Source: Octopus vulgaris
Lineage: Eukaryota
Reading direction: 5' to 3'
NCBI GenBank assembly: GCA_951406725.2
Contig: OX597843.1
Coordinates: forward strand, 18,414,001 to 18,478,000
DNA length: 64,000 nt
The position numbers were made by a program, and so were the translations under genes. Under the pieces are notes generated by a model. That model did not search any database and was not told the origin of the DNA. It worked only from the letters and a program-made list of their open reading frames with translations. Positions 3,566 through 56,205 of the stretch are shown piece by piece (the first letter of the stretch is position 1; the number at the start of each line of letters is the position of its first letter).

Positions 3566-3720
3566 TTACCTCCCAGACAATAACCTGAGGTGTGGATGTC
3601 ACTTGCCAGCCTTCGTAAATTATATTAAAAAAGTCTATAACAGAACTGTGGCTGTCTCTGGCACGTGTCTTGAAGGCTCGGGGAAACGAATACCTATACT
3701 GGATTATTTGCAATGTCAAA
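3566..3720 (+). CDS. Gene 1 exon A: LRR C-terminal cap (LRRCT)
   Basis: tattacag|T TAC...CAA A|gttagt; YLPDNNLRCGCHLPAFVNYIKKVYNRTVAVSGTCLEGSGKRIPILDYLQCQ shows the N-x-x-x-C-x-C...C...C LRRCT pattern; phase 2 in, phase 1 out. Confidence 0.85.
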
Positions 3721-6438: not shown

Positions 6439-6530
6439 ATTACTCGTTATTTCAACGGAATTTACAGTGTCAAACATGTACAGGAATGAAATGTACTGAT
6501 TTAGAAGTGACAAGCTGTCCAGGAGCAGAG
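6439..6530 (+). CDS. Gene 1 exon B: first half of Ly6/uPAR (LU, three-finger) domain
   Basis: ctgtag|AT TAC...GCA GAG|gtaaac; (N)YSLFQRNLQCQTCTGMKCTDLEVTSCPGAE; phase 1 in (matches exon A), phase 0 out. Confidence 0.88.
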
Positions 6531-8484: not shown

Positions 8485-8668
8485 CCAGTATGCCGATTCG
8501 CAATATCAATGAACGGTGTTACAATGAAGACTGAAAGGTCCTGCAGCACATACAGAAAATGTGTTGAATCTATGAGAAACAATACCCTTACATGCAATAA
8601 ACGGACGAATAGCATGTCTTGTACTGGTTGTTGCGTCGGACACTTATGTAACAAGAATGATTTCATTG
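8485..8668 (+). CDS. Gene 1 exon C: second half of LU domain
   Basis: attacag|CCA...ATT G|gtaagt; PVCRFAISMNGVTMKTERSCSTYRKCVESMRNNTLTCNKRTNSMSCTGCCVGHLCNKNDFI ends in the CCxxxxCN LU signature. Confidence 0.9.
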
Positions 8669-8815: not shown

Positions 8816-8904
8816 GTGTGTATATATATATTGTTTGCAATGTTCTCTCTCCCTCTCTCCCTCCCCCCTCTCTCTCTCTCTCTAACACACACACACACAC
8901 ACAC

Positions 8905-9200
8905 AGATGGAATCAAACAGCACGACATGAAGGAAAAGAGCAAAAGAGAGCACGTTTGGCGAGTGAGCAAAATATTGGTTTGAAAGCTAAACACCAGAAA
9001 CATAATTTCGTCGATAAACTCGCACGCAGTCGCAGTAGTTCGGAATGACGCTGGAAAACTGAAGTGGACAGAGGAGAAGCTAAAGGAGATGGACAGGAGG
9101 TCAAGAAAGGTCCTAATGATGTATGGACCCAATCATCCACGTGCAGACATTGATAGCCGATACATGAAGAGAGCGACAAGAAGAAAGGGATTGATAAGTG
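8905..9200 (+). mobile_element. Degenerate R4/Dong-type RT fragment in intron (partial copy at 17095-17270)
   Basis: GIKQHDMKEK...INSHAVAVV...WTEEKLKEMDRRSRKVLMMYGPNHPRADIDSRY, with an in-frame stop. Confidence 0.7.
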
Positions 9201-9487
9201 TATATATATATATATATATAATAATTATTATTTGAGGGAATAAAATCCAAATTTACGAGGAAAAATTCAATTTAGAAATACTAAATCAAATTTCACACAA
9301 TATAATATATAAATAAAAAATTAGAAAAAAAACACCTTTTATCAATTCAAAATGAACAATTAAATTACACCCTCTAGAAAATTACATATAATAGAAATAT
9401 TAAAAGTAAAATAACAATAATATACCGATGATTAAGTAAATTGCAAAAAAAAAAAATAATAAAAACGTATATAATAGGTAGAATAAG

Positions 9488-9524
<37 letters not shown>

Positions 9525-9746
9525 CAATATAGGGTGGCAAAAAATTTCGCAGAATTTTTTGCCACCAGCGGCCTAGTGGGAAAATATTAAATAGTCATAG
9601 ACCATTTATAAATTCAACAGCAAAATCAAGGGTAAATGTTTTTTTAATTTTCTCCTGGTTTACGGAATTAATGTTGTTTTGCGGTTGAAGCCTTGGCTGT
9701 TATTTCTAGTGGGTGAATGGCCTATTATGGCCGTTCCTTGATTTTG

Positions 9747-9803
<57 letters not shown>

Positions 9804-10166
9804 TCCGGGTGAATACTTGATAAATGTAAGCACCTGTATAGGTGATAGGAAATATGCATCGAAAGAAAAACAGGACGCAAAGGATATTGCGGTACATATG
9901 TTTCGGTCTTTATTGAACAACTTATTCTTATATCAATGCATAATTGATATAACAGATAGATCAAAAGACTTCTTCAGCCGCGTACAATTACCACACCAAA
10001 GACATGTCTCTAGTGTGATATAATATAATATAATATATATATAGTATTTTTGAGTGTATGTGTGATTATGAAAGTATATTTTTATCCACGTATGTGGGTT
10101 TCATGTGCATCTATGACATGTGTCTCATTTATAAATGCAGCGATTATTTTCTATATCAATCCATAG

Positions 10167-10249
10167 GCCGGACCAAATCCTTCGTATTTCGTTTGATTTT
10201 TAAAAAGTTCAACGAATATAAAATCCTTGCTGAGAACATATCAAGAGCC
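10167..10249 (+). CDS. Gene 1 exon D: SEA-like domain part 1
   Basis: ccatag|GC CGG...AGA GCC|gtgagt; GRTKSFVFRLIFKKFNEYKILAENISRA; phase 1 in, phase 0 out; conserved in the duplicate at 17551. Confidence 0.82.
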
Positions 10250-10650
10250 GTGAGTAGATATCTGCCCTCTCTCTCTTTTTCTCCGTACACAGACGCGCGT
10301 GCGCGCACACATGCATACACATACACACACTCACGCACACATACACACACACACACTCACGCACACATACACACACATGCATATATTATAGAAGAAATGT
10401 GAAACGTCAAATATATATTGAGGTTTCATGAAATTCAGACAATCAACTCCATTTACTGAGAGCAAACTATTACATAAAACTTTCTTCTTTAACTTACTGA
10501 ATTTTTACAGTCATTAAAAAGACTGTTCTATCCACTATTTTGTCTTTATATATTCCGTGATATAATTTCCGATTCTGACAGTAAATAAAATCCTACTCAA
10601 ATATTCACTGATCTTGTGTTTACACACACACACACACACACACACTCACA

Positions 10651-10687
<37 letters not shown>

Positions 10688-11227
10688 ACACACGCACACA
10701 CAAGAACATATGTAATCACACACTTCCTTTTGGTAATATTTTTCTTCTCTCAACATTTTCGTTTTCCTTTCTGACAAGAGATATGCTCGGAACATTAAAA
10801 TCCCTCTCATTTCCCCCACTTTACCGAGTGTCAAGCTAATATATTTATATATAATTATACTCTGAAACGCAGAATAATGCTAATAGCATAGTATGAATAG
10901 GATAAACTATTCACCTGTTGCCGAAAACTCTTTCGGCAGCCAGATAACGCGTCTTATAAAGCTAGATGTATATATAGCCTAAATTTGCAGAAGTATTTGT
11001 CGTTCGCACAGTTCAGCTTAATGGTAAAGCACTTAAAGCGTAATCACAGGGGTGTGAGTTGTAGTCATATAGCTGGCCGCCGACAGACTTTTCTGCAAAT
11101 TATGGATATTTCATCCGGTTCATGTTATATCATTAGCATTATCCTGCGTTTGAGAATAAAATTATTTCTTTATCTATTTTTCAATACATCTCAACGCTTT
11201 TAAATCAAACTTTGTTTCTTGAATTTA

Positions 11228-11273
<46 letters not shown>

Positions 11274-11286
11274 CCGGCTTTTGCAG

Positions 11287-11339
11287 ATGGAGCGTGACCT
11301 TTCAACCGTTACGGGAACATTCAGAGTTGAAGACTGTGG
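11287..11339 (+). CDS. Gene 1 exon E: SEA-like domain part 2
   Basis: ttttgcag|ATG...TGT GG|gtaagc; MERDLSTVTGTFRVEDCG; phase 0 in, phase 2 out, exactly bridging exons D and F. Confidence 0.82.
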
Positions 11340-11560
11340 GTAAGCAAATACTAGCACATTTATTCAAATTTATTTCCTTTTGTTCCAAACATTCGATTTT
11401 ATCGCATGTATTATACGTCACAATAATCAACAGTGACCCACAATATACTAATTCATATATTCAAGGAAATGTTTAAGTGTTTATCAATGTTTTATTATAC
11501 AAAAGACAAACAAACCCATATAAAGATACAGAGAGAACTATATATATACTTGTATATATG

Positions 11561-11651
<91 letters not shown>

Positions 11652-11694
11652 GTATATATATATATATACATATATATATACATGTATATATATA

Positions 11695-11753
<59 letters not shown>

Positions 11754-11759
11754 ACACAT

Positions 11760-11802
<43 letters not shown>

Positions 11803-12513
11803 CGCGTTGAGTCGAAACAGGGACAGCTGAAAAAGGCGAATGTTCCTTGTATTGTTTGTCTTGTACTCTGTTTTTTCGTTGTTAAAAATGTCCGTTTCCT
11901 TGTTTTGTTCTTATGTTTTCGTTTCTCGTTGTGTTCTACGTTTATTTGTGGTGTCCTGTACTCATATATGCCTGTGTATATACATATAGATGTAGGTATG
12001 TACATATATGTATGTATGCATATGTTTCATTTACTAAATTGTTGTATATATATGTGTATATATATATATACATACATATACATACACACATATATATACA
12101 CACATATATATACACACACATATATGGGTGTCTATATATATAAATTGAGGTGGCCATCGGCAATTTGAAACCAACAAGGAAATAATTTACAGTCACTAAG
12201 TGTGAAAAGAGTGCATTGTTAGAAATATTAGTCATAGACTCCTTAGCCACAAAAAGACATATGGTCTCTTTGCATTGAAAGTGGGGATAACATTCTCCAC
12301 CGTAAGCGAGATGGATTAGATTAGCATGGTAATTTCTTATAGGAAGTTAATACTCATCAGCAATGCTCACTCCATTACGGCTGGTGGAGGCTAACTCCCG
12401 CCTGTCAGTATCACTGAGAATGCCATAAGAATGAGTGATTGATTTCACAAAATGGCAATGTGAAGATTATAAAATATTTAAGGTTGCTAACACGCAATTT
12501 AAAACCAACGAGG

Positions 12514-12600
<87 letters not shown>

Positions 12601-13210
12601 TATATAAAGTGAATACAAAAATTTATACATTGATAGAAGACCATCATGTGGATTTCTTAGTGGACGAATATCTTCTTAAGGCCAACTTTTAATCACCCGC
12701 GAGTAGTTCTAGCCTTCTTCACTAATTCTGTTCTCAACCATACTGAATGCGGTTATTTTAGCTGTGATGATCCAATCCTAAGCTATATTTGAATATAGTG
12801 ATAGAAAACGATGTGAAAGACAGTGGTGATGGTGGTGGAGGGGAACGTGATGAAAAGTATTGATGGTGATGGCGTCAGAAGTCTGGATGGCGTGTGTATG
12901 GCAGATATGGTGGCGATGGTGGTGGTACTGTTGTTTAACATGTAGCTTTGCAATAAGATCCAAGTCGACAAATTATATCATTGCTTTGATAAAAATTGTT
13001 CATTGCTTGAAAAATATTGTTCAGGTTTCATGAAATTTAATATTTACTCATTGCATGGTGTCATTGTTGGGCTCAAGGTTCAATAGGGCGGCTTTTAAAC
13101 GAGCGTATATATATATATATATATATCAATGTATGTATATTTCTATCTATCTAGCTAGTTTCTACATACATACATACCGACATACATGTATGTATTTATT
13201 TTTATTTCAG

Positions 13211-13365
13211 CTCAGACAGAAGTAAAATATTTGCTATTTACTGTACAGTATTTAGCGAAATGACTGAAAGTCAACTGCGGCGCAATATCTCCGAAGTTTT
13301 GAACAAATCCCAGGCATTGCTTAACATAGGAGTTAGGCAAAGCCACATGAAATTCATTGACGAAA
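13211..13365 (+). CDS. Gene 1 exon F: SEA-like domain part 3
   Basis: tttcag|C TCA...GAA A|gtaagt; SDRSKIFAIYCTVFSEMTESQLRRNISEVLNKSQALLNIGVRQSHMKFIDE; phase 2 in, phase 1 out. Confidence 0.85.
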
Positions 13366-14240
13366 GTAAGTATTGTGTTTCTTTTTATTTTTGCCATCAT
13401 TACCGTCATAATTACCATCCTCTTCATCGTTGTCGTCATCATCAACCACAGTGGATGATACCATAGAACACGCACGCGTGCACATGGACACACACACACA
13501 CAGACTCCCCCCTCTCACACACAACTATTTATTTACATTTTCTCGAAGCTTGGATGATTTCAATAAATCAGCATTTTATTTTGCACTTCAGTTCTTGTTC
13601 AGTTTCTTTTTAATTATACTAATTAACCGAGGGCAAAAATGTTTTCTTATTTCGTATAGAAGTAGAAGAGGCAGACTCTGCTGGGCAGAACAATTCACAC
13701 AATTCCAGTACTTGCTTTAATTCAAACAGGAAAAATATTTAGTGTTGCAAATAATTTTCCTCAGCGAAAATTCATTTCGTACGAAGTGATCAAGTTAATT
13801 TTTACATTAGGATCGATAGATACACACAGCTTATACGCTTTAACCAATGTCTAAGAGATATACAAGAGGAACAAAGTATATCCCATTGCCGAACAATGTT
13901 ATATTTTCACTTCGTTTCCATTCATTTCATTTAACCACCGCCAAATCAATATAACATCTGCCTATTTATAGCATACATTAGGGTTTGTTCTTCCGGTCAG
14001 TATGTCTAAAGAGTGATCAATATATTGACGAAATGCAACAATAGTGGGGCGCGAAACAGACAAGCATTCTGACTAGTCATAACCCGTAACCAGTTATATA
14101 TTGCTTGAGAAAATATAAAAATATATATACATATACACATACCTCTATTTCGGGATGGCATTTTATTTATTATTTTTTAAGAATATATAAGTAAATATAT
14201 ATTTAGAAGCATACATACATACATACATACATACATACAT

Positions 14241-15061: not shown

Positions 15062-15173
15062 TGTTTTGTGATGAAAGCACATCAACTAACGATGGAACTT
15101 TCTCTTGGCCAATGACAAAAATAGGAACTACTGCAGAGATCCCATGTCATGGAAATGTAGCCACAAGGCATTG
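15062..15173 (+). CDS. Gene 1 exon G: hormone-receptor motif (HRM/HormR) part 1
   Basis: tttttcag|TG TTT TGT...CAT TG|gttcgt; MFCDESTSTNDGTFSWPMTKIGTTAEIPCHGNVATRHC matches the C...WPxTxxGxxAxxPC...ATRxC pattern of adhesion-GPCR HRMs. Confidence 0.9.
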
Positions 15174-16452: not shown

Positions 16453-16622
16453 TTCTCCCAGAACAGTGGGGCATCCAGAAATGGCATCAAGTCAAAACCT
16501 GTCATCACAAAAGTGTTCACCGTTTACTGGTATCTGGCAAGAACCAGACATGTCTCAATGTTACAATGCAGAACAGACCACCCAAGGACTAAAGGATATC
16601 GAAAACAAAGGCATTGATGATG
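16453..16622 (+). CDS. Gene 1 exon H: HRM part 2 and probable first helix of GAIN
   Basis: ttttcag|T TCT...GAT G|gtgagc; SPRTVGHPEMASSQNLSSQKCSPFTGIWQEPDMSQCYNAEQTTQGLKDIENKGIDD; GxWxxPDxSxC closes the HRM. Confidence 0.88.
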
Positions 16623-16735
16623 GTGAGCGAGCAAATCTTTTTGAATGACTTTTACAGCAGTAGAAGTAGCAGGATGACAAGTAGTAATTTTTGTGAGTGA
16701 CTATCTGTCTGTTTAATAATATTAATCCTTAAATT

Positions 16736-16945
16736 AGGCGGTAAGCTGGCAGAATCGTTAGCAGACCGGGAGAAATGCTTTGCATTATTTCGTCTGTCTT
16801 TACGTTCTGAGTTCAAATTCCGCCGAGATTGACTTTGCTTTTCATCATTTCTGTGTCGATAAAATAAGCAAAATTTGAGCTCTGGGTCAATGTAATCAAC
16901 TTAACCCCTGCACAGAATCTGCTGGTCACGTACCAATATTTGAAA
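16736..16945 (+). mobile_element. SINE family B
   Basis: GGCGGTAAGCTGGCAGAATCGTTAGC...GAGTTCAAATTCCGCCGAG. Confidence 0.8.
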
Positions 16946-17061
16946 CCTGCATTGTTCCTTTGATTATGCCCTTTTATTTACACGATTTATTCATTTCATA
17001 TTCATTTCATTCATCGTTTGCAATGTTCTCTCTCCCAAACTTTCTCTCTCTCTCACTCTCA

Positions 17062-17092
<31 letters not shown>

Positions 17093-17392
17093 TGGTGGAA
17101 TCAAACACCACGACATGAAGGAAAAGAGTAAAAGAGAGCACGTTTGGCGAGTGAGCAAAATATTGGTTTGAAAGTTAAACGCCAGAAACATAGTTTCGGC
17201 GATAAACTCGCACGCAGTCGCAGTAGTTCGGTATGAGGCTGGAAAACTGAAGTGAACAGGGGAGAAGCTACCACATGGTTACGGGTTCAGTCCCAATGCG
17301 TGGCACTTTCGGTAAGTGTTTTCTACAATAGCCTCAGGCCAAACAAATTCTTTTGAATGGATTTGGTTGACGGAAACTGAAAGAATCCCGTC

Positions 17393-17427
<35 letters not shown>

Positions 17428-17550
17428 GTATTTTTAAGTGTATATGTGATTATGATTGTATATTTTTATCTACGTATGTGGGTTTTATGTGCATCTATTA
17501 CGTGTGTCTCATTTATAAACTCAGTGATTATTTTTTATATCAATCCATAG

Positions 17551-17633
17551 GCCGGACCAAATCCTTCGTATTTCGTTTGATTTTAAAGATGATCAACGAA
17601 CGTAAAATCCCTGCTGAGAATGTATCAAGTGCC
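17551..17633 (+). CDS. Duplicate exon D' (SEA-like part 1), intact
   Basis: ccatag|GC...GCC|gtgagt; GRTKSFVFRLILKMINERKIPAENVSSA; the phase-1 acceptor is compatible with exon H. Confidence 0.6.
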
Positions 17634-18856
17634 GTGAGTAGATATCTGCTTTCTCTCTTTCTCCGCACTCTCACACATACACACGCACTGACCACGCGCA
17701 CACATGCATACACATACATACATATTTTATCGGAGAAAAGCAAAACCGTGAATTTAAATAGTGAGCTCAATACGTTTAGTAGATATTAATATCGGTTTTG
17801 TTAAATGATAACAGGTATCTTAAAGTTTAGCCTGATCAGCTTAAACACATAAATACATACATATATGTAAATACATGTTAAATTCAAATATACAGATAAG
17901 CATTCTATGCGCATGTATTTATTTTTTGATTCCCTACATATTCTGCGGCGAGCTGGAAAAGTCTTTTGTACGTAGAGCAAAATGATAAGCGGTAATTCGC
18001 CCCTCTTTATATTTTGAGTTCAAATTCTACCGCAGCCGACTTTGCCTTTCATCCTTTAATCGTTTTTACTACACCTCTGTATGAGTATTTACTCCACTGC
18101 CAAGCTTTGTTGAGCTAGTTTGGTTTCTTAGGCTCATCAAACCAGTATACTCTCGAGGTCAAATCACGGCCTCCACATCAGATAGGGTTGGTAGAGAGAG
18201 TATGCTGAGACCTTCATTCTGCTGTGGAATGAACATCGGCAATCTAATGCAATCCATATATTCATAATTTGTATGCATGTAAGTATATATAGACTTTTAT
18301 ACAGACATATAAATATACTGAGACATGAACATGCAGTAGACCGTAGTAAAAGAATGCGAATTAATTGTATTTGGGTTTCATGAAATTCAGACAATCAACT
18401 CCATTTACTGATAGTAAATTATTACATAATAAAATTTTTTTAAGTTACTGATTTTTTGCTGGTCAATAAAAAGACTGTTTGATCCACTATTTTGCCTTTA
18501 AAAGAAGTCCACACAATGAACATCATTTATATATTCCGTGATATAATTTCCGATTGTGACAGTATATGAAATCCCACTCAATTATTCATTAATCTTGTGT
18601 TTACCACACACACACACACACACACGTGCTCGGACACGCACACACGCATATGTACACACTTCATTTTGGTAATATTTTCCTTCTCTCAACTTTTCAGTTT
18701 TCCTTTCTGAAAAAGAGCTATGCTCGAAACGTTAAAAACTCTTTCTTTTCCTCCACTTTACCGAGCGTCCAGCTAATATGTTCCATGCGCACGTACTCTT
18801 GTCTTTTGTTATTGTTAATTTTAAAGCTCTACTCTTCAAATTTTACTATTCGATTT

Positions 18857-18896
<40 letters not shown>

Positions 18897-18989
18897 CAGA
18901 TGAGAAAATAATTTTTTCTCAAACGCAGGATAATGTTAATAATATAGCATGAACAGGATAAAAACTATCCATATTTTGCAGAAAATCTG

Positions 18990-19165
18990 TCAGTGACCTG
19001 TCATGAGACTCGAACTCACATCCCTGTGATTATGCAACTTCTAAAGCTAGATTTATATATCCTAAATTTGCAGCGGAATTTTTCGTTCGGGCAGTTTAGC
19101 TTAATGGTAAAGCACTTGCCGCGTAATCACAGGGATGTGAGCTTCAGTCTCACAGATTAGCCGCA
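18990..19165. pseudogene. tRNA-like (Thr CGT-like) sequence with an upstream inverted partial copy; more decayed paralog at ~11000-11075
   Basis: TAGCTTAATGGTAAAGCAC...CGTAATCACAGGGATGTGAGCTTCAGTCTC at ~19097-19152; 19003-19037 is the reverse complement of its 3' half with an intact GAGTTCGAGTC B-box. Confidence 0.5.
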
Positions 19166-19654
19166 AAATATGGATATTTTATCCTGTTCATACTATATTA
19201 TTATCATTATCCTGATTTGAAAATGAAATTATTTCCATATCTCTATATTTCAATACATCTCAACGCTTTTAAATCAAACTTTGTTTCTTAAATTAAATGT
19301 ATATATATATATATATATATATAAATATATATATGGTTCGTTCCGATTCGTCGTTTCGTTCCACCTCTTGGTTCCTGTTATTTTTATTTTATTACTATAT
19401 ATATATATACTCAAAATAAGGAGCAAGAATTACTCCGGTAATTTGGTACGATCGTTTCGTACTACATCATTTTATTAAATGTTGTAACATTTAATAAAAT
19501 GATGTAGTACGAAACAATCGTACCAAATTACCGGAGTCATTCTTGTTGCTCATTTTGATTATAATCACCCCACGGATTTTTATGGATAATACCATACAGA
19601 ATTCTGGTGCATCTAACTTAAGTACCATATTCATTTGAATCTAAATTTTTGCTG

Positions 19655-19719
<65 letters not shown>

Positions 19720-19732
19720 CCGGCTTTTGCAG

Positions 19733-19785
19733 ATGGAGCATGAGTTTTTAACCGTGACTGGAAAATTCAGAGTTGAATATCCTGG
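19733..19785 (+). CDS. Duplicate exon E' (SEA-like part 2), intact frame
   Basis: ttttgcag|ATG...CCT GG|gtaagc; MEHEFLTVTGKFRVEYPG. Confidence 0.6.
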
Positions 19786-20091
19786 GTAAGCAAAAGCTTC
19801 TAACACATTTATTCAAATTTATTTGGTTTTGTTCAAAACGTTCGATTTTATCTTATGTATTATATATCACAATAATCAACAGTGTTGTACTTGTGACCCA
19901 CAATATACTAATTCATAATTCAATGAAATGTTTAAGTGTTTTCTCAAAGTTTTATTATACAAACGACAAACAAACCCATATAAATATACAGAGAGAACTG
20001 TGTATGTATATATACATACCTTTATATACATCTATACATATATACATATATATATATATACATGCATACACACACACATACACACATACAC

Positions 20092-20161
<70 letters not shown>

Positions 20162-20346
20162 ATAAGATCGATATTTAAATACCTATTTTATCAGGTGGCC
20201 AGTATGGGAATAAAAACCTTTCAAAAACCTTATTTGAAATTATAATATAGTGTATCCAAGAGATACCACCACGCCGGAAATAGCAGTCAAAACTTAACTT
20301 GAGAGAAGACGAAGAGACAAAATAAACTAGCAAAAAATTACTGTAT

Positions 20347-20408
20347 AATTCTAGATTCCGGATTTCTGACTCTGCATAAGAAATGGTGTGTCTTCATCAG
20401 TGGAATAT
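20347..20408 (-). ncRNA. Minimal hammerhead-ribozyme-like motif in a (TA)n-embedded element
   Basis: Minus strand: ATTCCA CTGATGA A GAC...GTC A GAAA TCCGGA ATC TAGAAT (core boxes, palindromic stem III, imperfect stem I). Confidence 0.55.
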
Positions 20409-20433
20409 ACTCGGAAAAAAGTAAATAAATACA

Positions 20434-20469
<36 letters not shown>

Positions 20470-20516
20470 ACATACGATATACTTACATATAAGAACGTAT
20501 ATATATATATATGTAC

Positions 20517-20551
<35 letters not shown>

Positions 20552-20914
20552 TATATATATATATATACACACACATATATATATATATATGAGTGTGTAT
20601 ATATAAATTAAGGTTGTTATCAGCAATTTAAAACCAACCAGGAAATTACATATATATATATGAATTGTTTATAAAATATTATACACGGAGAGCAGACCAC
20701 CATGTGGATTTCTTACATGCTAAAGAGGGCAACTCACGGTACTGGACGAATATGTTCTTAAGGCCAACTTTTAGTCACCCGCTTGTAGTTCTAGCCTTCT
20801 TCGCTAATTCTGTTTTCAACCATGCTGAATGCGGTTATTTTAACTATGATGACCGAATCCTATGCTATATTTGAATGTAAAAATAATTGAAATAAAACAA
20901 TTAATTTCTTTAAG

Positions 20915-21018
20915 TGTTCAAAGTGAACTGCGGCGCAAAATCTCCCAAGTTTTGAACAAATCCCAGGCATTCCTTAACTTAGGAGTCCAGAAAAGTCACA
21001 CGAAATTCCTTGATGAAA
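20915..21018 (+). CDS. Duplicate exon F' (5'-deleted, with an in-frame candidate new acceptor)
   Basis: tttctttaag|T GTT CAA AGT GAA CTG...GAA A|gtaagt; VQSELRRKISQVLNKSQAFLNLGVQKSHTKFLDE; the original acceptor and the first ~19 codons of exon F are missing. Confidence 0.45.
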
Positions 21019-22440
21019 GTAAGTATCTTGTTTCTTCTTATTTTTATCACCATTACCGTCATAATTAGCTTCATCAATCACCATTACCATCCTCTTCATC
21101 ATCGTCGTCATCATCACCTACAATGGCTGATACCTTAGGACACGCACTCGCGCACGCAAGCACACAGGCTCTCCCCTCCTTCTCATACATACAACTATTT
21201 ATTTACATTTTCTCAAAGCTTGGATAATTTCAATAAATCAGCATTTTATTTTGCGCTTTTCCGTTTCTTGTCCCTACGGAACTGTTTGTGTTTGCTCATT
21301 TTCTTTTTAATTATACTAATTAACCGAGGGCAAAAATGTTTTCTTCTTATTTTGTATAGAAGTAGAAGATGCAGACTCTACTGGGCAGAATAATTCACAC
21401 AATTCCAGTCCTTGCTTTAATTCAAACAGGAAAAATATTTAGTGCTGCAAATAATTTTCCTCAGCGGAATTTCATTTCGTACGAAGTGATCATGCTAATT
21501 TTTGAATAAGAAACGATAGATACACACACAGCTTATACGCTTTAACTCATCTCTAAGAGATATACAAGAGGAACAAAGCATATCCCATTGCCGAACAATG
21601 ATATAATTTTTTTCACTTTGTTTCCATTCATTTCATTTTACCACTGACAAACCATTATAAAGTCTATCTATTTCCGGCATAAATGAGGTTTATGCGCATC
21701 CGGTCAGTATGTCTAAGTATTGGTCAATATTGACGAAATGCAACAATAGAGGCCGCGAAACAGACAGTAGCATTTTTACTAGTCAAACATCGTAACAAAT
21801 TATATATTGCTTGAGAAAATGTAAAAATATAGATACATATACACACACATATTTCGGGATGGTCATTTAATTTATTATTTAAAAAAAAAATGTAAATATA
21901 TGTGTGCATATATATATGTGTTCCTAGGTAGAGTTCACGGGGATCTCTACGTACAACAGTGTTCGGGCAAACAGATCACATTGGCATAATTTGAAGAAAG
22001 CTATCAAAGTAATTTCTCATGGATTCAGATCTACGTTTCGAGCATTGTCTTCTGTGAAATATACACGCTGGCCATTTTCAAGATGTACAGATAGATTTTA
22101 AGAAAGTGTTCCTACATGTAAACAGGATGTGACCTTTGTGTTGACAGTGTGTTTGTCTAAAAGCAGAACAGTTCTTCCATCAGCGCTTGTCAATTGGCTG
22201 AAGTAACGTGAAAGGCATCGTAATTCATGGTATATTCGTGAATAAGTAACAAACTGAAATACGCTGATCTATTGTTTAGGGAAATATTATTTACTTGTTT
22301 AAGGGTTGTACTGGATACATAGAGAAAACAGCTCTAACAGTTCAAATAGTAAGAAATAAACATATATATACAAATTAATATTATACGGTAATTAATGTGC
22401 TTAAAATTTTATATTTTATGTTTTTTCATTATGTTTCCAG

Positions 22441-22493
22441 GTTCAAGTACTGGTAATGGAACAGAGGATAGGGCAGCAGAAACAAACTTCTAA
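22441..22493 (+). CDS. Candidate terminal coding exon
   Basis: Strong pyrimidine tract ending tttccag|GT TCA AGT ACT GGT AAT GGA ACA GAG GAT AGG GCA GCA GAA ACA AAC TTC TAA; (S/G)SSTGNGTEDRAAETNF*; phase 1; AATAAA near 22900. Confidence 0.45.
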
Positions 22494-22539
22494 GTGAAAA
22501 TCGAAAAAGAGCCTCCAAGAATCGTCTTTGATGATATTT

Positions 22540-22695
22540 TATGATATAAAACGATATTTTCTGCATATATGATACAAAATAAAATTTTCTCCATATATAA
22601 TATGAAATAATATTTTCTTCATAATTGATATAAAATTATATTTTCTGCATATATAATATAAAATAATGTTTTCTCCATATATAATATGAAATATT
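22540..22695. repeat. 28-bp minisatellite, ~5.5 copies
   Basis: A unit like TTTTCTCCATATATAATATGAAATAATA recurs at 22557, 22585, 22613, 22641 and 22669. Confidence 0.85.
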
Positions 22696-23495
22696 TGTTC
22701 CTTGTAATGACACTATAATTGTACCTTTCAATACAACACTATGCATGCATGAGACTTTATAATCCACCATAATGTAATTTAAGCAAGTTTCAGGGCCTCA
22801 CTATGGCTTGAAACAGAAAATATTGCATGATTTGAAATTATATTGATATTCTATCTTCTTGCCAATTTAATGTTATCAATGTAAGCTTTAAAATTGTTAA
22901 ATAAAGGATTAAATCTGATCTGTTGCTACCGTTCGTTTTCTAGATGAAATACTGTAATACCGCAGACTAAGATCAAATACCACCGGAAGAGGCGTTGATT
23001 CCGTTTGTTATTTTAAACATTCCACTAAAATGTTAAAACTTGCAAAATGTATCATGCTGATTAGATTTATGATCATTTATCTAATTAGTATGATCAGGTC
23101 ATTCAACTGTCATTGTTCAAGTAATCAACATTTCACAAACAGCTACATTCCAATCAAAGCACCGGACGTAGATTTGTCTTCTACACGTTCATGTCTACTT
23201 TCACTCCATCAATGTTACACTAACACGAGACTGCGCACGCCTCAATGTCTTCATTGAAGTAGTTTCTTAGTTATATTCTCTACATGATATTCAGGCCCAT
23301 TAGGCCGCACTCTCTCTCGGTATCCAACACATTCCAACACCCGGCGATAGAAGACATCCCACTAAAAGAGATGCCAGTCTGTTGCAAGTTTAACTCCTGG
23401 TTGTTGCTGGCATTTCTTCTCAGATGAGTGCAGTGGAAGTGTTTTTCTAGTGGACAGAACTCTCCCAGCCAATAGTCTACGTGCCTGTATATATG

Positions 23496-26760: not shown

Positions 26761-26819
26761 GTGCGTGTGTTTGAGAGATTTGGTTATTTTCTTGCTGAAA
26801 CTTTTCCTCGTTTAAAAGA

Positions 26820-28010
26820 AACCAGTTTCAGGTTCAAATTAAGGCTACATATATCTTATTTTTAACTTCGCGGTGTACATTTCTATTGCATTTATTGTTG
26901 TTAGGTGTTTGAAATCATTAATTGTAGTTTTGTTGTGATGCATTCTTCCCTTTAAATGTTCTTCTCAATTTCTGATATTTTTCGTTTTCAGAATTTATCT
27001 TATTAAGTTAGCTGGTTTGTTGGGATCCGATGATACAGTTCGCTCTTGGCTATTTTCTCTTCACATTTTATTCTAGTATATCCTATTTTCATTTCGTGGT
27101 CATAAAATATAGATGCAAAATAAAAACAAATTTCTCTTGTGTCCATTTTATGTATTTTCTGTTTCTTGCTAGGACTGAGGAGTTCAGTTTGATAATTTTT
27201 TTTAATTATCATCTTTGGGTAGGGGTGTTTTAATTTCTCTTCTTGGTGAGTTTTGCAAGCGTGATTTTTCGTAAATTTTTTTTATAAAAAAACTCCTCGT
27301 GTGCATTGCCCAATTAAGAAGAAATTTTGACGAATTGATATATTTTTACCCAGATTCTTTGACCTATTTTAAGTTTGGTGGTGGGTGACAAAGTGATGCG
27401 GATTTGATATAGACCGTGATCTGATGGCCGTACCTATATGGGATCAGAGAGCTTCGGACACTGTAAGCATTTAAAAGATTACTTTTAAATAGTAAATGGC
27501 AATAAATTTTACAGAGGTTTTCTGCTGCTGTTAACTTTCAACAATTCGACAAGTTGTTTTCAGTTTTATTTGTTGCTTTTGGATAAATTTTTAAGCAATG
27601 ATTAACCTTTCTTACATGGTAAACATCCCCAGTGTTCTTATTGCTGTTGATGTTGCTGTAGTTAGCAGTAGTCGTACTAGTAAATATTGTGTTTGTAGTA
27701 TATAATTTTCATATCTAATATTACAGCCAGTATGCCGGTTCGCATTATCAACGAACGGTGTTACACTGAAGACTGAAAAGTCCTGCAGCACATACAGGAA
27801 ACGTGTTCAAGCTATTGTAGACAATATATTTACATGCATTAAATGGGCCAGTGGCATTTCCTGTGTTGGTTGTTGCGTCGGAAGCTTATGTAACGAGAAT
27901 GATTTCATTGGTAAGGGTTATTAATTGCCTAATATAACACCACCACCAGATTTATCACAAATTAATAGTCAATAAGTACATTGTATTGCAGTTAATATAA
28001 AGGAAGATAT
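26820..28010 (+). repeat. Diverged duplicate of 7620-8770 (intron plus exon C)
   Basis: Colinear similarity along the whole block, e.g. ttttaagtttgg.g..gggtgaca and catggtaaacatccccagt. Confidence 0.9.
27727..27910 (+). pseudogene. Orphan duplicate exon C' (LU domain second half)
   Basis: attacag|CCA...ATT G|gtaagg; open 184 nt; PVCRFALSTNGVTLKTEKSCSTYRKRVQAIVDNIFTCIKWASGISCVGCCVGSLCNENDFI; one Cys->Arg; no partner exon B' seen nearby. Confidence 0.75.
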
Positions 28011-28098
28011 TTCGATGCGTGTATACGTGTGTGCATGTGTGTATATGTGTGTAGGCACCTGCAGCAGTGCATACACACATACACACTCACACATACAC

Positions 28099-29620: not shown

Positions 29621-29890
29621 TATATAAAAAAAGGAAATGAAGAAAATGCTGACAAAATAATTTAAGTAAGGGAGAGTGTATTTAATTAGGTGAGAGTTCT
29701 TTTTACCGGTTGCGCATTTGTTATACTTATCAAAAGATATTTTTTAAGAGAGATAGAGTTCCTTTCTGATAGATTTTTGATAACCATAACAAATGCGCAA
29801 CCGGTAAAAAGAAATTTCACCTAATCAAATACACTCTCCCTTACTTAAATTATTTTGTCAGCATTTTCTTCATTTCCTTTTTTCTTATAT
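29621..29890. repeat. Fold-back element with ~110-bp inverted arms among (TA)n runs
   Basis: AAAAAAGGAAATGAAGAAAATGCTGACAAAATAATTTAAGTAAGGGAGAGTGTA...TACACTCTCCCTTACTTAAATTATTTTGTCAGCATTTTCTTCATTTCCTTTTTT. Confidence 0.9.
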
Positions 29891-29999
29891 ATATATATAT
29901 ATATATATATGTCTTAGGATGTGGAATGTTCGTATCAGCTAACATGGACTACGTCATCATAATACTGTTCACGAAGCGGTGATAGGAGCAAAGCTTATC

Positions 30000-30960
30000 C
30001 AAGAGAAGTCGGTAGGCCTGCAACTCGGCAGATGGAGAGGCAGACCCATACCAATCGACAGTCTGTAAGGCGCTAGACGGAAAGACAGGTTAAACTGCTT
30101 GGGGTCTGGTATGCTCTAGACCTCGAAGTGGACAACAACGGGTGGGAGGTGACGAACGGGATAGTCGATCACACCCAGAAATTGGCAGAGAGGAAGCTGT
30201 TCGTGAAGGGTCGAGTCGAGGTGACGAATGCGTACATCGCTTCCGTCATCTATGACTGCCTGAATGTAGTCCCATGCCCGATAAAGTTAGAGCGTTTGTT
30301 GTTCCGCTTTCTAAAGAAGGAACGTGTTCCGCTCATCAGACGGTCCATCTGCTGTCAACAACCTCTCAGTGGAGTACTGGACATGCCGTTGCTAATGATT
30401 CGCAGACATGCGCTGAGACTGCGACATTTCCTGCATTTCTTTAACCGTGAGCATAGAGATTGACTGTTTGTGAAACGGGACTTTCCGCAGCTCGTCTCAT
30501 TTATGAAGCTACAGTACTGAGTCAAGCGCTGGCCAAGAAAGGGTGCTTGGCTCTTGAAGTGTCGGCAAGCTCTCACAGCTTTCTGCCAGTCCCCATCTAT
30601 AGGGGACTAGTAGAGTTGATAGAACAACGACGAAATCCGGGTAAATTATGGACGTAAGTGGAGGGAATCAACTAACTGGTCTTTAACTTACAGAAATCTC
30701 TGGCCTGGCAATATTACCGGGGAGCTCAGCCGGTTCAAGACAAGCTCTACAGATACGAAAGTGTTGTCGGACGGATATGTCGGGGATGTGCGCAGGGCGA
30801 TGAAATAGTCCTGCATGCACTCGTTCGTCCAGTTTACGAGCCGAGTTCATTGTAAAGATCGCCCCGCCACCTTCTTTTGGCCGGGAAGGAAAAGCAGTTT
30901 CTTCTGCCCGGTGGCTAAAGAAGTCGTGGGGTGGACGAGACTGAAAACATTGAAGACTAA
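30000..30960 (+). mobile_element. Degenerate L1/Tx1-like LINE 3' part (copy at 36910-37865)
   Basis: VKLLGVW, KGRVEV...YIASVI, LERLLFRFL, GVLDMP, then a zf-RVT-like LAWQ...DKL...CRGC...E...HAL. Confidence 0.75.
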
Positions 30961-31081
30961 ACCTCCTTCACAGTAAAATTATGTCATTTAATATTATCAT
31001 TTAATATTATCATTAATATTCACTTCAGTTTTATATTAAAGAAACACTTAGGCATGGTTATGTATCTCATTGCATCACACA

Positions 31082-31130
<49 letters not shown>

Positions 31131-31454
31131 ACACACACACAGATACCGGCAGAATATTAGCTTTATATTTTCAATTTATTTTTATCTTTCACTTTTTGCA
31201 GAAGGCATCCAGAATACTGGAGACAATCTGAGATACAAATACATTAAACAGCTTAGGAGGCCACTGCATATCTTCCTCTCCCTCTTCCCCTCCCTCCTAT
31301 GAAAATAGGGCATCAAGCTATTGAAGTTTTCGGTACAGATGAGCAGTTGAAGTTTTGAATATAATTATGTGTCAATTATTATAATCGTTATTGTGGTGTT
31401 CACTTCCGTTTTATATCAAAGCAATACTTGGGCAGATTTATATATCTCAGTGCA

Positions 31455-31502
<48 letters not shown>

Positions 31503-32079
31503 CAGGATAAATACACTTGAAGACCCTTCACACCACAAAATCCTCACCTGTCATCCGTCATTCGTATAAAATATTGCTTCTTTGATAACGAAAATTCTTT
31601 CCCCATAACTTTAAAGCTGCTAAAACCTTTAATTCCTCTTCAGAATTGTTATAATTTCTCTATCATATACTTTATTTTACAAACGTAATTTTCTGAAATG
31701 AACTATTGTTAAATGAATTTGTATCGCTTGCTTCCATGTCAGTCATTATATATATCTTTTAAATTATTATCGTTATTGATAACGTGATTTTCTGAAGTGA
31801 CACTAACGTTAAATGAATCTATCGTCTGCTCACAGGAAATATTTGGCTGCTGTTTCTAGCACATCCAGCTTAAGCTTCAGAGATTCCTCACAAAGAGAAT
31901 GGTGGATGACAATGTGAACACTGGAGGGTCTAACAAAGAATTCAGAAATGTACTTCATTTTAATGTTGACTTTAGACGTTGTATTTGGGAAGATATCGAT
32001 GATCAATAGTTATCGAGCAAAAGTGAGATGATTCTAAAACATGAAAAATCTATCGTCTGATCGTATAACAATATTTTGA

Positions 32080-32560
32080 TCATTTCCGGTTAATGTCGCT
32101 TTTAAACGATTTTTCTCAAATATTTTTTGCTTCTTCCTTTGGTTCTGACGTTATTTCTTTGATACGAAAGTTTCTTGAGAGTATTACTTCTTCTCTGCCT
32201 CTCCACTGTTCATAAGTGTTGGCTAGGTTTTCATTGTTTACAGCTCTGCAATATGCTTGTTTTCTTTTATTTAATATCTTAATCCGGATGTTTTTCATTT
32301 GATATCTCTTTTTGTATGTCTCCTTTTTCCAAGCTGAGTTCATTCAATTCTCTTAGTACGTCTTGTGTGGTTGAATTTAGGTTGTGGATATCCGTTTTCG
32401 GAGTTCTGCTTTGGTTCTCATTTTGTTGTTGGTATGTAAGAAGGGAATAAAGTGTTTCTATGTAGATTTGCGTCTTTTGTGCCATTTCATGGAAGGCATC
32501 AGCAAGGCATTCATTTTTTTATCATGGTTGAAAGCTTTTGGTAAATTTCTTCTAATTATA
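32080..32560 (-). mobile_element. Retroelement-like ORF remnant (copy at 38945-39420)
   Basis: Frameshifted ORFs with LNKRKQAY...NENLANTYEQW...ILSRNFRIKEI; no splice structure; family not determined. Confidence 0.45.
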
Positions 32561-32584
32561 TTTCAGATTTCAGTGATTCGGCAC

Positions 32585-32639
<55 letters not shown>

Positions 32640-32718
32640 TGTGCATGAATGTATAATATATATATATACATATACATGAATACATACATATATATATAAT
32701 TCTGATAACTGAGTGTGC

Positions 32719-32768
<50 letters not shown>

Positions 32769-33111
32769 TATATACACACACACACAGATATCACAATTTG
32801 TAAAAATAGTACTTAGATTATTTCAAGTTAATTTCAGTTACGCATATACACACACATACATACACACACACGCGCGCGCACATACACATACACATACACA
32901 CAAGCACCAGCAGACAGTGACATAATTTTCATTTCTCCATTTCTGCTGGAATGCTGATGCCGGAGAAGGAGTGTATACCGATAAGTGAAGGGAATTAATA
33001 TGTATCAATCCCACCAAATGCTTAGAACAGGGTTACGTAGCTAATAGCTTCACACACACACACACACACACATATATGTATATATATATATATATAAATA
33101 TATATATATAT

Positions 33112-33166
<55 letters not shown>

Positions 33167-33879
33167 TAATTGTGTGCGTTGTGTTCCGCTACTTCAATGA
33201 AAAAATGTGTGGTAAATAAACATATGACGCAACATCTCTATATATATATGCGTACATATATATATAAACATTCACTAACTCTTACGAAGAGAGGCGTAAC
33301 CACTTCTTTGGTAAGTTACGGTTTTAATTATATTATATCACCCATCTATTGGCCATCGTCCAGCCTCTTCAACGGCATTTATGATGGGATAAAAAGGGTC
33401 TCCACCGTTAAGGCCACATACGTTTTTTTATGCTTTTATTTTTACTTCAGTAATTTTCAGTTAACCCATTAGCATTGGCACTGGCCACGTAGGGCCCAAA
33501 TATTCTTCCTGTTTTCTGTTGAAACTGAACAGATCAGCCCTTTCATAACCACCATGCAAAGTTATTCTAAAAGTAAACAATCACATAATCAAAATCTCAA
33601 AGTTAGAAGATGTTTTTTTAGGAGTCTGAGAGGAGGAAGAAAAAGCGATTGATCATAATACTTGGAATAAATTTGTGTTATATATATATTTATATTTCTG
33701 TGGGTATCTATATATATGCTGACTACTTTATGTTTTTAATACTGCGTATTAATGTAGGAGTTTATATGTTTATATATCTGCTTATATGTGTGTGTGTGTT
33801 TGCATGTATGTAAGCGCTTGTATGTATATATTATGTATTTGTAAATGCAAGTTTGGATATTTCAGATTTATTGCACATG

Positions 33880-33937
<58 letters not shown>

Positions 33938-35059
33938 CATATATGCATACATAGACACACACACACATATAAGCTATTTGGAATGCGTTCACTTGTCGAT
34001 TGTCAGGTTGACTCTTGTTTTACATTACAGCTTTGATGGGCCTCGGGGCTTGCCATAGGATTTCTTAGAATTAGTGAAGTGCATGAATGTCGGTCAGTAT
34101 TTATGCTTCCATGAATATATAACGGCAGAGAATTTAACAGCGAGGAGTTATGGAGGCGAAGAATAGTTTATGACCCTTTTATACATAATATACATTTCCC
34201 TATATTTGTGTTGTAGAGTGGAGCTTCATATACTACGGACCACGATGGAGCGTATTGGACATTCTTTTGAATTGAGGTTGTATATGTGTGTTGCTAAAGA
34301 TTGAAAAGGTTTAGATTTGGGATTAGAATTATGCTAAATTCTCTGCCTGATCTACAGGCTCATTAGGCCACCAGTATATCTCGGTATCTAACGTATTTCA
34401 ACACACAAGGATACAACACACCCGACTGAACAGGATACCAGTCTGTCGCAATGTTAACCCCTGGTTAATGCTGGTACTTTTCAGATGAGTGCACTGGAAG
34501 TGTCTTTCTCGTGGACACAACTTACCGAAACAATAATCCATACGCCTATATGTGTGTGTGTGCGCGCTTATGTACATATCCGTGTGTATGTGTGTGTATT
34601 TTTGTATGCATACACACACACACACACATAATCTTTTATTCTTTTATTCTTTTGCTTATTTAAAGGTGAATTTCAAAGTCGTTATGCCAATCACATAATC
34701 CCCTTCGGACATAGGACAAAAGTAAAGCTACGAAACTGGCTAAGTTTGGAAGAAAACGAAACACGACATGTGACTGGATGGGATGTAATTGAGAATCCAT
34801 AACTTATGTTAATGGATCGAATAAATATAAGCTTTGTTTAACTGAAAGAATGCATATCCTGTTCAGATCTAAGATGCTTAATTCTCTATTGGTCTCTAGG
34901 TCAGGAATTTTCAGTCGTTGTCAAGTTTAAATATATTTTGATATCTTTTTAGCCTTATAATTCAAGATCCAACGAGGAGACCTTTAAATGCTGTCTTTGC
35001 TTTTCCCTTTTCCCATTTTCGTTTTTGTGCTTTCGCATTCCGATTTCCGGAACACTGGG

Positions 35060-37980: not shown

Positions 37981-38026
<46 letters not shown>

Positions 38027-39446: not shown

Positions 39447-39495
<49 letters not shown>

Positions 39496-39574
39496 TGTGC
39501 ATGAATGTATAATATATATATATACATATACATGAATACATACATATATATATAATTCTGATAACTGTGTGTGC

Positions 39575-39626
<52 letters not shown>

Positions 39627-43802: not shown

Positions 43803-43854
<52 letters not shown>

Positions 43855-56017: not shown

Positions 56018-56205
56018 ATGTTTCCCCACATAGTATCATATGTGCAAACGTTTGTATTGATATTGTGTTCGATTTTGTTTTTGGAGGCTCATGCTGTTTC
56101 ATATATATGCAAGATATGTACTTGCTACGGACCTACAAAGGTATATTGTAAATATCGCCAATTAACATCAGTCCCACAACCAATTCCGATGGATATTGTA
56201 TTGTT
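56018..56205 (+). CDS. Gene 2 first coding exon: signal peptide plus LRRNT (exon starts at 55998)
   Basis: ttgacag| acceptor 20 nt upstream of the ATG; MFPHIVSYVQTFVLILCSILFLEAHA-VSYICKICTCYGPTKVYCKYRQLTSVPQPIPMDIVL; donor TT|gtaagt, phase 2. Confidence 0.9.

Follow-up and report, generated by a model that had tools for sequence, protein, structure and literature searches.

Secreted Frizzled-related proteins are encoded by genes of their own which specify a receptor-like ligand-binding part without a 7TM; they are ancient, consist of unrelated domains and have proven ligands. Among the adhesion GPCRs, human ADGRE4 (EMR4) is disabled by a point lesion, and vertebrate ADGRG6/GPR126 carries CUB-PTX in front. 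According to a section of PMC13197933, the N-terminal fragment of GPR126 undergoes secretion and affects other cells, and ADGRE4 is an adhesion-GPCR locus reported to give a truncated protein of unresolved status. Soluble-NTF mRNAs are made by 55.6% of the mouse adhesion-GPCR genes examined in PMC6667449. Closest to the locus described here are the full-length octopus ADGRG6-like receptors (P0027, P0030, P0035) which have the same LRR-LU-SEA-HRM ectodomain and the same last exon and occur in tandem clusters; exons of P0027 and P0030 match the locus at about 50-83%. These receptors probably correspond to the octopus-specific "group 3" adhesion GPCRs of PMC6408891, to which we liken them by description: group 3 is of the adhesion type, is clustered and shows LRR in 5 of 22, which fits the parent family. 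Since the proteins of that study were gathered by a 7TM Pfam model, genes devoid of a 7TM could not be seen by it.

The locus lies in a window of 64,000 nucleotides of Octopus vulgaris contig OX597843.1, and all features described below are located on its plus strand. Compared to the full-length octopus receptors, it lacks GAIN, GPS and 7TM, the place of which is taken by a damaged second SEA domain. Its product is a derivative of the adhesion-GPCR family and not a receptor member of it, as the modular homologous ectodomain of class B2 is present while GAIN/GPS and the secretin-type 7TM are absent. The fragment of GPR126 is released from a 7TM precursor, whereas the octopus locus encodes no 7TM. 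The soluble-NTF splice variants of PMC6667449 likewise constitute an anchorless ectodomain, yet they arise as alternative transcripts from receptor genes that are intact, while in octopus the genes themselves have lost the exons, a state fixed in two species and amplified; GAIN-7TM exons in the same gene, by which such variants are defined, are found neither up to the next gene nor anywhere in the window. ADGRE4 is a single locus, in contrast to the rebuilt multi-copy subfamily of octopus. Compared with secreted Frizzled-related proteins, which serve as our working model, the octopus genes are recent and derived directly from a receptor gene.

The gene, whose structure A..H-D'-E'-F'-T we regard as nearly certain, enters the window within its LRR region, the putative signal peptide and the remaining LRR exons being located upstream. 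Exon A (3566..3720, phase 2 to 1) encodes the LRR C-terminal cap and corresponds to residues 414-465 of the NCBI model P0005, in which Pfam LRR_8 is recognised with an E of 2e-97. The two halves of an LU-like 12-Cys module are encoded by exons B (6439..6530) and C (8485..8668; 100% to P0005/P0006), the three parts of a SEA domain by exons D (10167..10249), E (11287..11339) and F (13211..13365), and the two parts of HRM by exons G (15062..15173; Pfam HRM E 7e-4, under the curated cut-off) and H (16453..16622), the latter followed by a phase-1 GT donor at 16623. While in full-length paralogs GAIN comes directly after exon H, here the exons D' (17551..17633, phase 1 to 0), E' (19733..19785, phase 0 to 2) and F' (20915..21018, phase 2 to 1) lead to a phase-1 terminal exon T (22441..22493) which ends in TAA. 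GT-AG is present at every junction, and the frame is open throughout, without stops or frameshifts. Joining in frame is cheap because the module borders as well as T are in phase 1.

A previous sequence-only reading had proposed that the phase-1 exon H can be spliced in frame to D', E', F' and T. Its coordinates hold, the frame is open, and the C-terminal part of the predicted NCBI O. vulgaris models P0005 and P0006 ("adhesion GPCR G6-like") is identical to H-D'-E'-F'-T. It had, however, taken this for a possible splice route at a single locus, while it is the sole ending encoded in the window and common to the whole subfamily. Its suggestion that the exon at 22441 equals the last exon of full-length paralogs was right, as T is homologous to the last, cytoplasmic-tail exon of the 7TM paralogs (P0027 and P0041 end in ..EDRRAETNF, P0030 in ..DKATETNI); in P0025 the T exon is read in another frame. 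The AATAAA which it noted near 22900 is present as a candidate polyadenylation signal (22900..22905), with a second candidate at 22578, but by itself this motif, occurring 1.3 times per kb in this window, is not above chance. Downstream of the stop an orphan exon C' (27727..27910) is found together with a copy of flanking intron (26786-28046); it is a relic of another paralog. Being in phase 0, located beyond the stop and deprived of one Cys, it was rejected as an exon of this transcript; it is also still open in frame. The next paralog begins with a first coding exon for signal peptide and LRR N-cap (56018..56205, ATG at 56018) and continues with LRR exons at 58636, 60255 and 62422, its single exons being 88-92% to O. 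sinensis P0196 and P0030.

That there are no GAIN, GPS or TM exons between exon H and 56018, as the same reading had stated, is borne out for the whole window on both strands. In the search with GAIN/7TM of full paralogs which it had called for, none of 235 24-aa tiles from six GAIN-bearing paralogs reaches E<1e-3, whereas 114 of 153 ectodomain tiles from the same six paralogs do so; the best GAIN-7TM tile scores 24.6 bits compared to 23.1 for a reversed-window null. The best E of a GAIN-7TM profile HMM against the window is 1.6, while the ectodomain profile recovers all 12 ectodomain exons (E 1.7e-33 to 0.043). Since among paralogs GAIN-7TM (53-76%) is about as conserved as the ectodomain (57-67%), the absence test had power. 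Tile and profile searches hence rule out that GAIN/7TM exons were overlooked between 16.6 and 56 kb or lie on the minus strand, and a Pfam search of P0005 reveals no GAIN, no GPS and no secretin-type 7TM. By hydropathy, no hydrophobic stretch follows the putative signal region (top 19-residue mean in the last 100 residues 0.26), i.e. there is neither a transmembrane helix nor a hydrophobic GPI-type tail, while P0027 as a control displays seven peaks. In P0005 a hydrophobic stretch, the candidate signal peptide, starts at residue 89 after M86; this model has an 85-residue extension and its start is doubtful.

In place of GAIN-7TM, self-BLAST identifies a block (17013..21901) as a duplicate of 8830-14200 including introns, both ends of which adjoin simple repeats in junction alignments. 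Duplicated non-coding blocks are also seen nearby at 29.9-44.3 kb. The introns of original and duplicate differ at 235 of 2162 bp (10.9%); the exons D-F and D'-F' differ at 35 of 236, which is above the intron value (p 0.08), and their dN/dS of 0.81 (Fisher p 0.65; 77 codons) gives no purifying signal. F' is a 5'-truncated copy of F from which about 470 bp including the acceptor of F have been lost. Shorter by 17 codons, it begins at a new acceptor, the first open in-phase AG within 20700-20990. The first 17 codons of F hold a core SEA strand modelled at residues 607-616, and the four-stranded sheet of the copy is incomplete. With these codons gone and a new acceptor in use, SEA'-T is probably no more than a passive left-over; given the missing core strand, we discarded the idea that SEA' serves as an additional functional domain. 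The pLDDT is low over D'-F', which is weak evidence as LU and HRM are low as well. The membrane-less LRR-LU-SEA-HRM-SEA' product previously envisaged is supported, except that SEA' is a damaged remnant which adds no domain.

In the predicted models the SEA domain of exons D-F adopts a ferredoxin-like beta-alpha-beta-beta-alpha-beta fold, for which SEA domains and GPR126 score Z 7.7-8.1, a value equalled by other ferredoxin-like folds. A first Foldseek search returned LRR proteins only. The P0024 model yields a SEA-type fold match, and the vertebrate ADGRG6/GPR126 ectodomain (PDB 6v55) is its only Foldseek match under E 0.001 (5e-5), with a VIA Z of 8.1 over 142-296 that is likewise tied with other ferredoxin-like folds; the family profile points to ADGRG6/GPR126 with an E of 1.4e-27. 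For the LU-like module B-C no match was obtained in Pfam, fold search or Atlas. Its 12 Cys are kept in 29 of 31 family modules, and their pattern, which ends in CC-x4-CN and on which the LU label is based, fits the LU / three-finger motif. Outside LRR and SEA1 the AlphaFold models are of low confidence (mean pLDDT 58.8 and 53.9).

The gene is one copy of a GAIN/7TM-less subfamily within the octopus LRR-type, ADGRG6-like adhesion-GPCR family. O. sinensis LOC115226146 X1 (P0188) shows the same H-D'-E'-F'-T with 278 of 288 residues identical (SEA1 97/97, HRM 90/95, SEA' 75/80, T 16/16). The tail is carried by 21 of 54 named family models, 9 from O. vulgaris (on 4 contig sizes) and 12 from O. sinensis (10 LOC ids, 5 contig sizes), compared to 21 GAIN-bearing ones; its absence from all 6 O. 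bimaculoides models weighs little with so few models. The new F' junction is common to 17 of the 21 7TM-less models. The 18 SEA' rows group together as a single clade (support 99/92, recovered in 100% of bootstrap trees) in a SEA tree without the fragment P0198 and the long-branch P0044; this test is not fully independent because the SEA' label uses a motif inside the alignment; the HRM tree is mostly unresolved. Two SEA' subtypes differ at 15 of 73 residues with their Cys patterns kept, LRR and LU counts vary among copies (e.g. P0005 vs P0006, P0003/P0004), and P0023, P0031, P0190, P0192 and P0193 are fragments or appear frameshifted, with varying endings. P0037 (O. bimaculoides; SEA-HRM-SEA, no GAIN) falls together with the 7TM-bearing SEA-HRM-repeat paralog P0033 and probably represents a gene model that was split. 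A search of protein representatives with the whole of P0005 was swamped by LRR proteins and says nothing on distribution beyond Octopus. Literature topic searches found no paper describing the subfamily or remarking on its NCBI models; six of the LOC ids are named in no full text searched, and none occurs in three PMC9712504 supplements. The gene models are already in NCBI; new here are the damage to F' with its new acceptor and the mucus peptide of 7TM-less paralogs.

This peptide stems from O. vulgaris arm-skin mucus extracted without detergent and analysed as 40,000 g supernatant (PMC10138644, Table S1). It spans the B|C junction (2 spectra) and is, among the models, tryptic only in P0017 and P0019, both of which are 7TM-less. 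A second peptide (1 spectrum) fits the 7TM-less P0013 and P0021 and one fragment model, and a third (4 spectra) is shared with GAIN-bearing models. Among the entries listed in the mucus table there are no matches for the tail motifs or for the LRR, SEA and HRM motifs of this locus, and among those listed for the ink proteome there is no subfamily peptide. As the mucus was scraped, the same peptides could also originate from debris of cells or from 7TM paralogs that lack annotation and shed their ectodomains. Support for secretion, which the earlier reading had considered, is indirect, coming from close paralogs in the soluble mucus fraction and not from this locus.

We envisage that, in the tandem array, a first rearrangement placed a copy of the SEA exons D-F next to intron H and a second one attached the last exon and 3' UTR of the receptor to this copy, whereby GAIN, GPS and all seven helices would have been dropped and the frame kept because the borders are in phase 1. 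The ~470-bp deletion would have taken the acceptor of F later, with the new acceptor rescuing splicing. We take this to be a single event which would date back more than 2.5 My but probably not as far as the split from O. bimaculoides at ~34 My, whereupon the gene would have multiplied and its tail passed to another paralog (P0024). The putative signal peptide would direct the product to the secretory path and, with no helix to anchor it, LRR-LU-SEA-HRM would be released, probably from skin into mucus. The presumed ligand-binding end would be kept while tethered agonist and G-protein coupling would be gone; SEA'-T would form a passive, probably poorly folded tail supplying stop and polyA. Such a product would most likely bind ligands of the 7TM paralogs, buffering or competing as a genome-encoded decoy. 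We consider it likely that the locus gives rise to a useful secreted product, and assign a probability of roughly 40% to our main reading, i.e. that the ectodomain is a putative ligand sink or decoy for 7TM paralogs.

Somewhat less probable, though a serious competitor, is an independent secreted LRR-LU mucus binder which would form a coat on the skin or serve in the recognition of microbes or surfaces, its variable LRR number providing a repertoire. The subfamily peptides in skin mucus, the many, partly mosaic copies with differing LRR and LU counts and both the positive selection on the octopus adhesion-GPCR expansion and its expression in suckers, skin and gills (PMC6408891) agree with it, as does the parity of 7TM-less and GAIN-bearing models, which is more than a simple buffer needs. 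HRM and SEA are intact, however, which would be needless for an LRR-only binder, and the copies adjoin 7TM-type paralogs close in sequence. Rather unlikely, in turn, is functionless birth-and-death debris: a young truncated duplicate, equipped with promoter and last exon and copied by an unstable array, would be expressed and, ending in a natural last exon, escape decay. The dN/dS of D-F vs D'-F', the damaged SEA', relics nearby (C', the non-coding blocks), fragmentary paralogs and the ease of in-frame accidents at phase-1 borders are what one would expect of it. Yet frame and splice sites are kept over 1004 coding bases despite the intron divergence, the two SEA' subtypes retain their Cys patterns, and peptides are present in mucus. 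Under neutrality the rough chance of a kept frame is ~e^-12 for A-H (~0.008 without the indel term) and 0.04 for D'E'F', estimates which use intron indel rates, assume the loss to be as old as the duplication and take no account of gene conversion or of survivorship bias among the copies.

Two further explanations concern the gene's end and the assembly. H or F' might splice past T to a phase-1 exon of the next paralog, the short form being a side product; that gene is a same-strand paralog close to the GAIN-bearing P0030/P0196, and its 3' end lies beyond the window. We judge this very improbable as every model of this gene and the O. sinensis ortholog stop at T, the exons of the next gene within the window are all in phase 2, and such splicing would have to skip two AATAAA and span more than 40 kb. 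The array is repeat-rich with near-identical blocks, which might invite a mis-assembly in the tandem cluster, as the sequence-only reading had considered. As the structure recurs in 21 models and in a second species with an assembly of its own (P0188), this idea is effectively rejected, and D'-F', which differs by 11-15% from D-F and has its own deletion, is no collapsed repeat.

Beyond the putative decoy at this locus, we tentatively propose that HRM-SEA'-last exon may be a transferable "anchor-removal" tail by which adhesion-GPCR genes are turned into genes for secreted proteins, built in the common-octopus lineage by one recent rearrangement, amplified and passed between paralogs. It would supply skin mucus with a varied set of soluble LRR-LU binders and pair these with membrane sensors for the same ligands. 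With 21 7TM-less and 21 GAIN-bearing models among 54, counting octopus GPCRs by name gives too high a number, and a survey based on the 7TM domain overlooks these genes. The "adhesion GPCR G6" which PMC11431876 puts forward as a mucus health biomarker may belong to these putatively secreted forms. Soluble adhesion-GPCR ectodomains of debated function have been described as products of splicing or cleavage; octopus has a whole gene set committed to them, so that what an ectodomain does on its own becomes separable from 7TM signalling and thereby testable.

On the forward strand of the window, which consists of AT-rich animal DNA with many microsatellites, a gene was rebuilt from exon coordinates, and its junctions and frame were then checked. 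It comprises the ectodomain exons A (3566-3720), B (6439-6530), C (8485-8668), D (10167-10249), E (11287-11339), F (13211-13365), G (15062-15173) and H (16453-16622), followed by D' (17551-17633), E' (19733-19785) and F' (20915-21018), which encode a second SEA copy (SEA'), and by the terminal exon T (22441-22493). All junctions are GT-AG, the frame is open and the translation equals the C-terminal part of P0005, an NCBI model of this locus, so that the in-frame route H-D'-E'-F'-T proposed in the sequence-only reading is borne out. The LRR exons and the signal peptide exon of this gene lie upstream of the window. Exon A may alternatively start at an in-frame acceptor further upstream (about 3515-3565), which adds 17 residues and is used in several paralog models. 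Read-through of the H donor meets a stop within few codons (16623-16649), as in the paralog model P0016 which ends in this way, and is a second route to a product without anchor. In the 3' UTR, a 28-bp tandem repeat of 5.5 copies (22540-22693) follows the stop and precedes the second AATAAA.

In P0005, Pfam recognises LRRs and, weakly, an HRM, and finds neither GAIN nor GPS nor 7tm_2, GPS and 7tm_2 being present in the paralogs P0027, P0030 and P0015. No hydrophobic segment was found in the encoded protein after the signal region. To the predicted structure of the paralog P0024, the zebrafish GPR126 ectodomain is the only Foldseek match under E 0.001, and region 139-234 of the P0024 model is a ferredoxin-like fold that SEA domains match at Z 7.7-8.1, tied with other hits; the fold checks gave no confirmation of the LU label of the Cys-rich module. 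When 24-residue tiles of six GAIN-bearing paralogs were searched against the window (E<1e-3), 114 of 153 ectodomain tiles matched and none of 235 GAIN-7TM tiles did, the top score of the latter being 24.6 bits compared to 23.1 for the reversed window. A profile of 12 GAIN-7TM regions reached a best E of 1.6 over 3164 six-frame fragments of the window, and the ectodomain profile used as control recovered all 12 ectodomain exons including those of 53 bp. Among paralogs, GAIN-7TM is as conserved as the ectodomain. The earlier claim that GAIN, GPS and 7TM are missing thus holds in both searches.

What stands in place of GAIN-7TM is a genomic duplicate. The segment 17013-21901 copies 8830-14200, introns included, with an intron divergence of 10.9% (235/2162 bp), and adjoins simple repeats at both ends; a short repeat (16736-16909) is situated next to its 5' junction. 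About 470 bp, including the acceptor and the first codons of F, are absent from the duplicate; the acceptor of F' is a new one, the earliest in-phase AG within 20700-20990 that keeps the frame open. The 17 codons lost from F' include the strand that is modelled, in the first SEA domain, at 607-616, for which reason SEA' is presumably unable to complete its sheet. Exon T is, as had been suspected, homologous to the last exon of the full-length receptors: P0027 and the paralog P0041 end in ..EDRRAETNF and P0030 in ..DKATETNI. The paralog P0025 also ends in exon T, in a different reading frame. Two rearrangements inside a tandem array may have built the locus, probably helped by the phase 1 of the module borders.

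Protein searches yielded 55 proteins, minus one unnamed record 54 named models (isoforms included, so that genes are overcounted), of which 21 carry the SEA'-T tail and 21 contain GAIN, the last 12 being fragments or of other kinds. The tail models comprise nine from O. vulgaris (contigs of 4 sizes) and 12 from O. sinensis (10 LOC ids, contigs of 5 sizes); in O. bimaculoides it was found in none of six models. According to the part of 10.1101/2023.05.16.540928 available, O. vulgaris and O. sinensis parted ~2.5 My ago, and their split from O. bimaculoides dates back ~34 My. Of the tail models, sixteen end in F'-T and one continues past F' into intron sequence; in the remaining four, F' is skipped and T is translated in a different frame (..FKYW). 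LOC115226217 gives both the F'-T and the F'-skipping form. In a tree of 53 rows the 18 SEA' rows group into one clade (support 99/92), so that a single origin of the tail is likely. P0024 combines a first SEA of P0027 type with the HRM and tail of this gene, which indicates that the tail moved by recombination, and the paralog model P0193 contains the retroelement relic found here before D and D', which points to duplication at the DNA level. The mis-assembly considered in the sequence-only reading is not borne out and is the least probable explanation, as the same order H-D'-E'-F'-T occurs in P0188 of O. sinensis (LOC115226146 X1; 278/288 residues identical) and the same tail in 21 of the 54 models.

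A sister set (P0007, P0011, P0014, P0015, P0018) joins SEA directly to GAIN without HRM and could have originated as reciprocal products when SEA repeats recombined; P0015 also is without the T ending, and F' of the paralog P0004 resembles F of P0014. Whole-module repeats arise independently in the family (P0033, P0037, P0001, P0003, P0004), P0033 repeating SEA-HRM three times ahead of GAIN and other members having two or three copies of the LU-like module. Further downstream in the window, an orphan LU half-exon C' flanked by intron (26786-28046), still open with one Cys lost, shows a greater similarity to the 7TM paralog P0030 (76%) than does exon C (69%); it is a relic of a deleted paralog. 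Recent non-coding tandem duplications pair 29886-33072 with 36800-39927 (3.9% diverged) and 33151-34326 with 42683-44265 (6.5%). Stretches at 31899 and 38766 match the modelled N-terminus of the O. sinensis paralog P0019, and one at 48553 that of P0013; these probably are upstream regions common to the family. The minus-strand ORF relics at 656-1564 and 40586-42620 are retroelement-like, and the many 150-200 bp repeats include SINE-like ones.

Signs of use point in both directions. Exons A-H (1004 bp) kept frame and splice sites despite the intron divergence since duplication, the neutral chance of which is roughly e^-12, or about 0.008 on stops and splice sites only (a biased estimate); for intact D'E'F' it is about 0.04 (likewise biased). 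Twelve Cys are kept in 29 of 31 LU-like modules. Comparison of D-F with D'-F' gives a dN/dS of 0.81 and revealed no exon conservation above intron level, and several paralog models are fragments. That the gene is expressed debris is, on balance, unlikely. In O. vulgaris arm-skin mucus, scraped, extracted with no detergent added and clarified at 40,000 g (PMC10138644), a peptide across the B|C junction is represented by two spectra among the matches listed in the supplement; the authors assign it to LOC115212327 (= P0019) and LOC115231226, and of the 54 models, P0017 and P0019, which both lack 7TM, are the only ones to contain it as a tryptic peptide. Another peptide, with one spectrum, is compatible with two 7TM-less models and one fragment, and a third (four spectra) is common to GAIN-bearing models too. 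Neither this locus nor the tail is represented among the matches listed, which counts against use, as does the scraping of the mucus. Tail peptides spanning E'-F' and F'-T are confined to 7TM-less models. 'Adhesion GPCR G6' is reported in the available part of a later mucus study (PMC11431876). The accessible supplements on mucus or ink (PMC10138644, PMC10142993) also list more distant family members, LOC115232314 with a SEA-strand peptide identical to P0036/P0038 at 10/11 residues and LOC115225305 with several LRR peptides. We rank the soluble decoy or ligand buffer discussed below ahead of an independent binder in mucus, which is possible though doubtful, followed by debris; read-through to the next gene is very improbable, and mis-assembly comes last.

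The gene is real, and its existing NCBI model bears a misleading name, 'adhesion GPCR G6-like': compared with an adhesion GPCR it lacks GAIN/GPS and 7TM, and compared with a soluble splice variant it has no GAIN-7TM exons in the window. In the accessible text of PMC6667449 over half of the examined mouse adhesion GPCRs give anchorless ectodomains as splice variants, and in that of PMC13197933 such ectodomains also occur as shed fragments. The parent family fits by description the octopus-specific adhesion-GPCR expansion of PMC6408891, a study that chose its proteins by the 7TM domain and found the expansion expressed in the nerve cord, in suckers and skin, and in the gills; membership in its group 3 is putative. 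No description of the subfamily was found in the accessible literature on topic, gene ids and species, including the supplements of PMC9712504 and PMC10142993, and it apparently is unremarked. In its working, the product would most resemble a secreted receptor ectodomain: it would be secreted, bind ligand via LRR and Cys-rich module and compete with the 7TM paralogs, and we give a probability of about 0.4 to its being a soluble decoy or buffer for ligand that is encoded as such in the genome.
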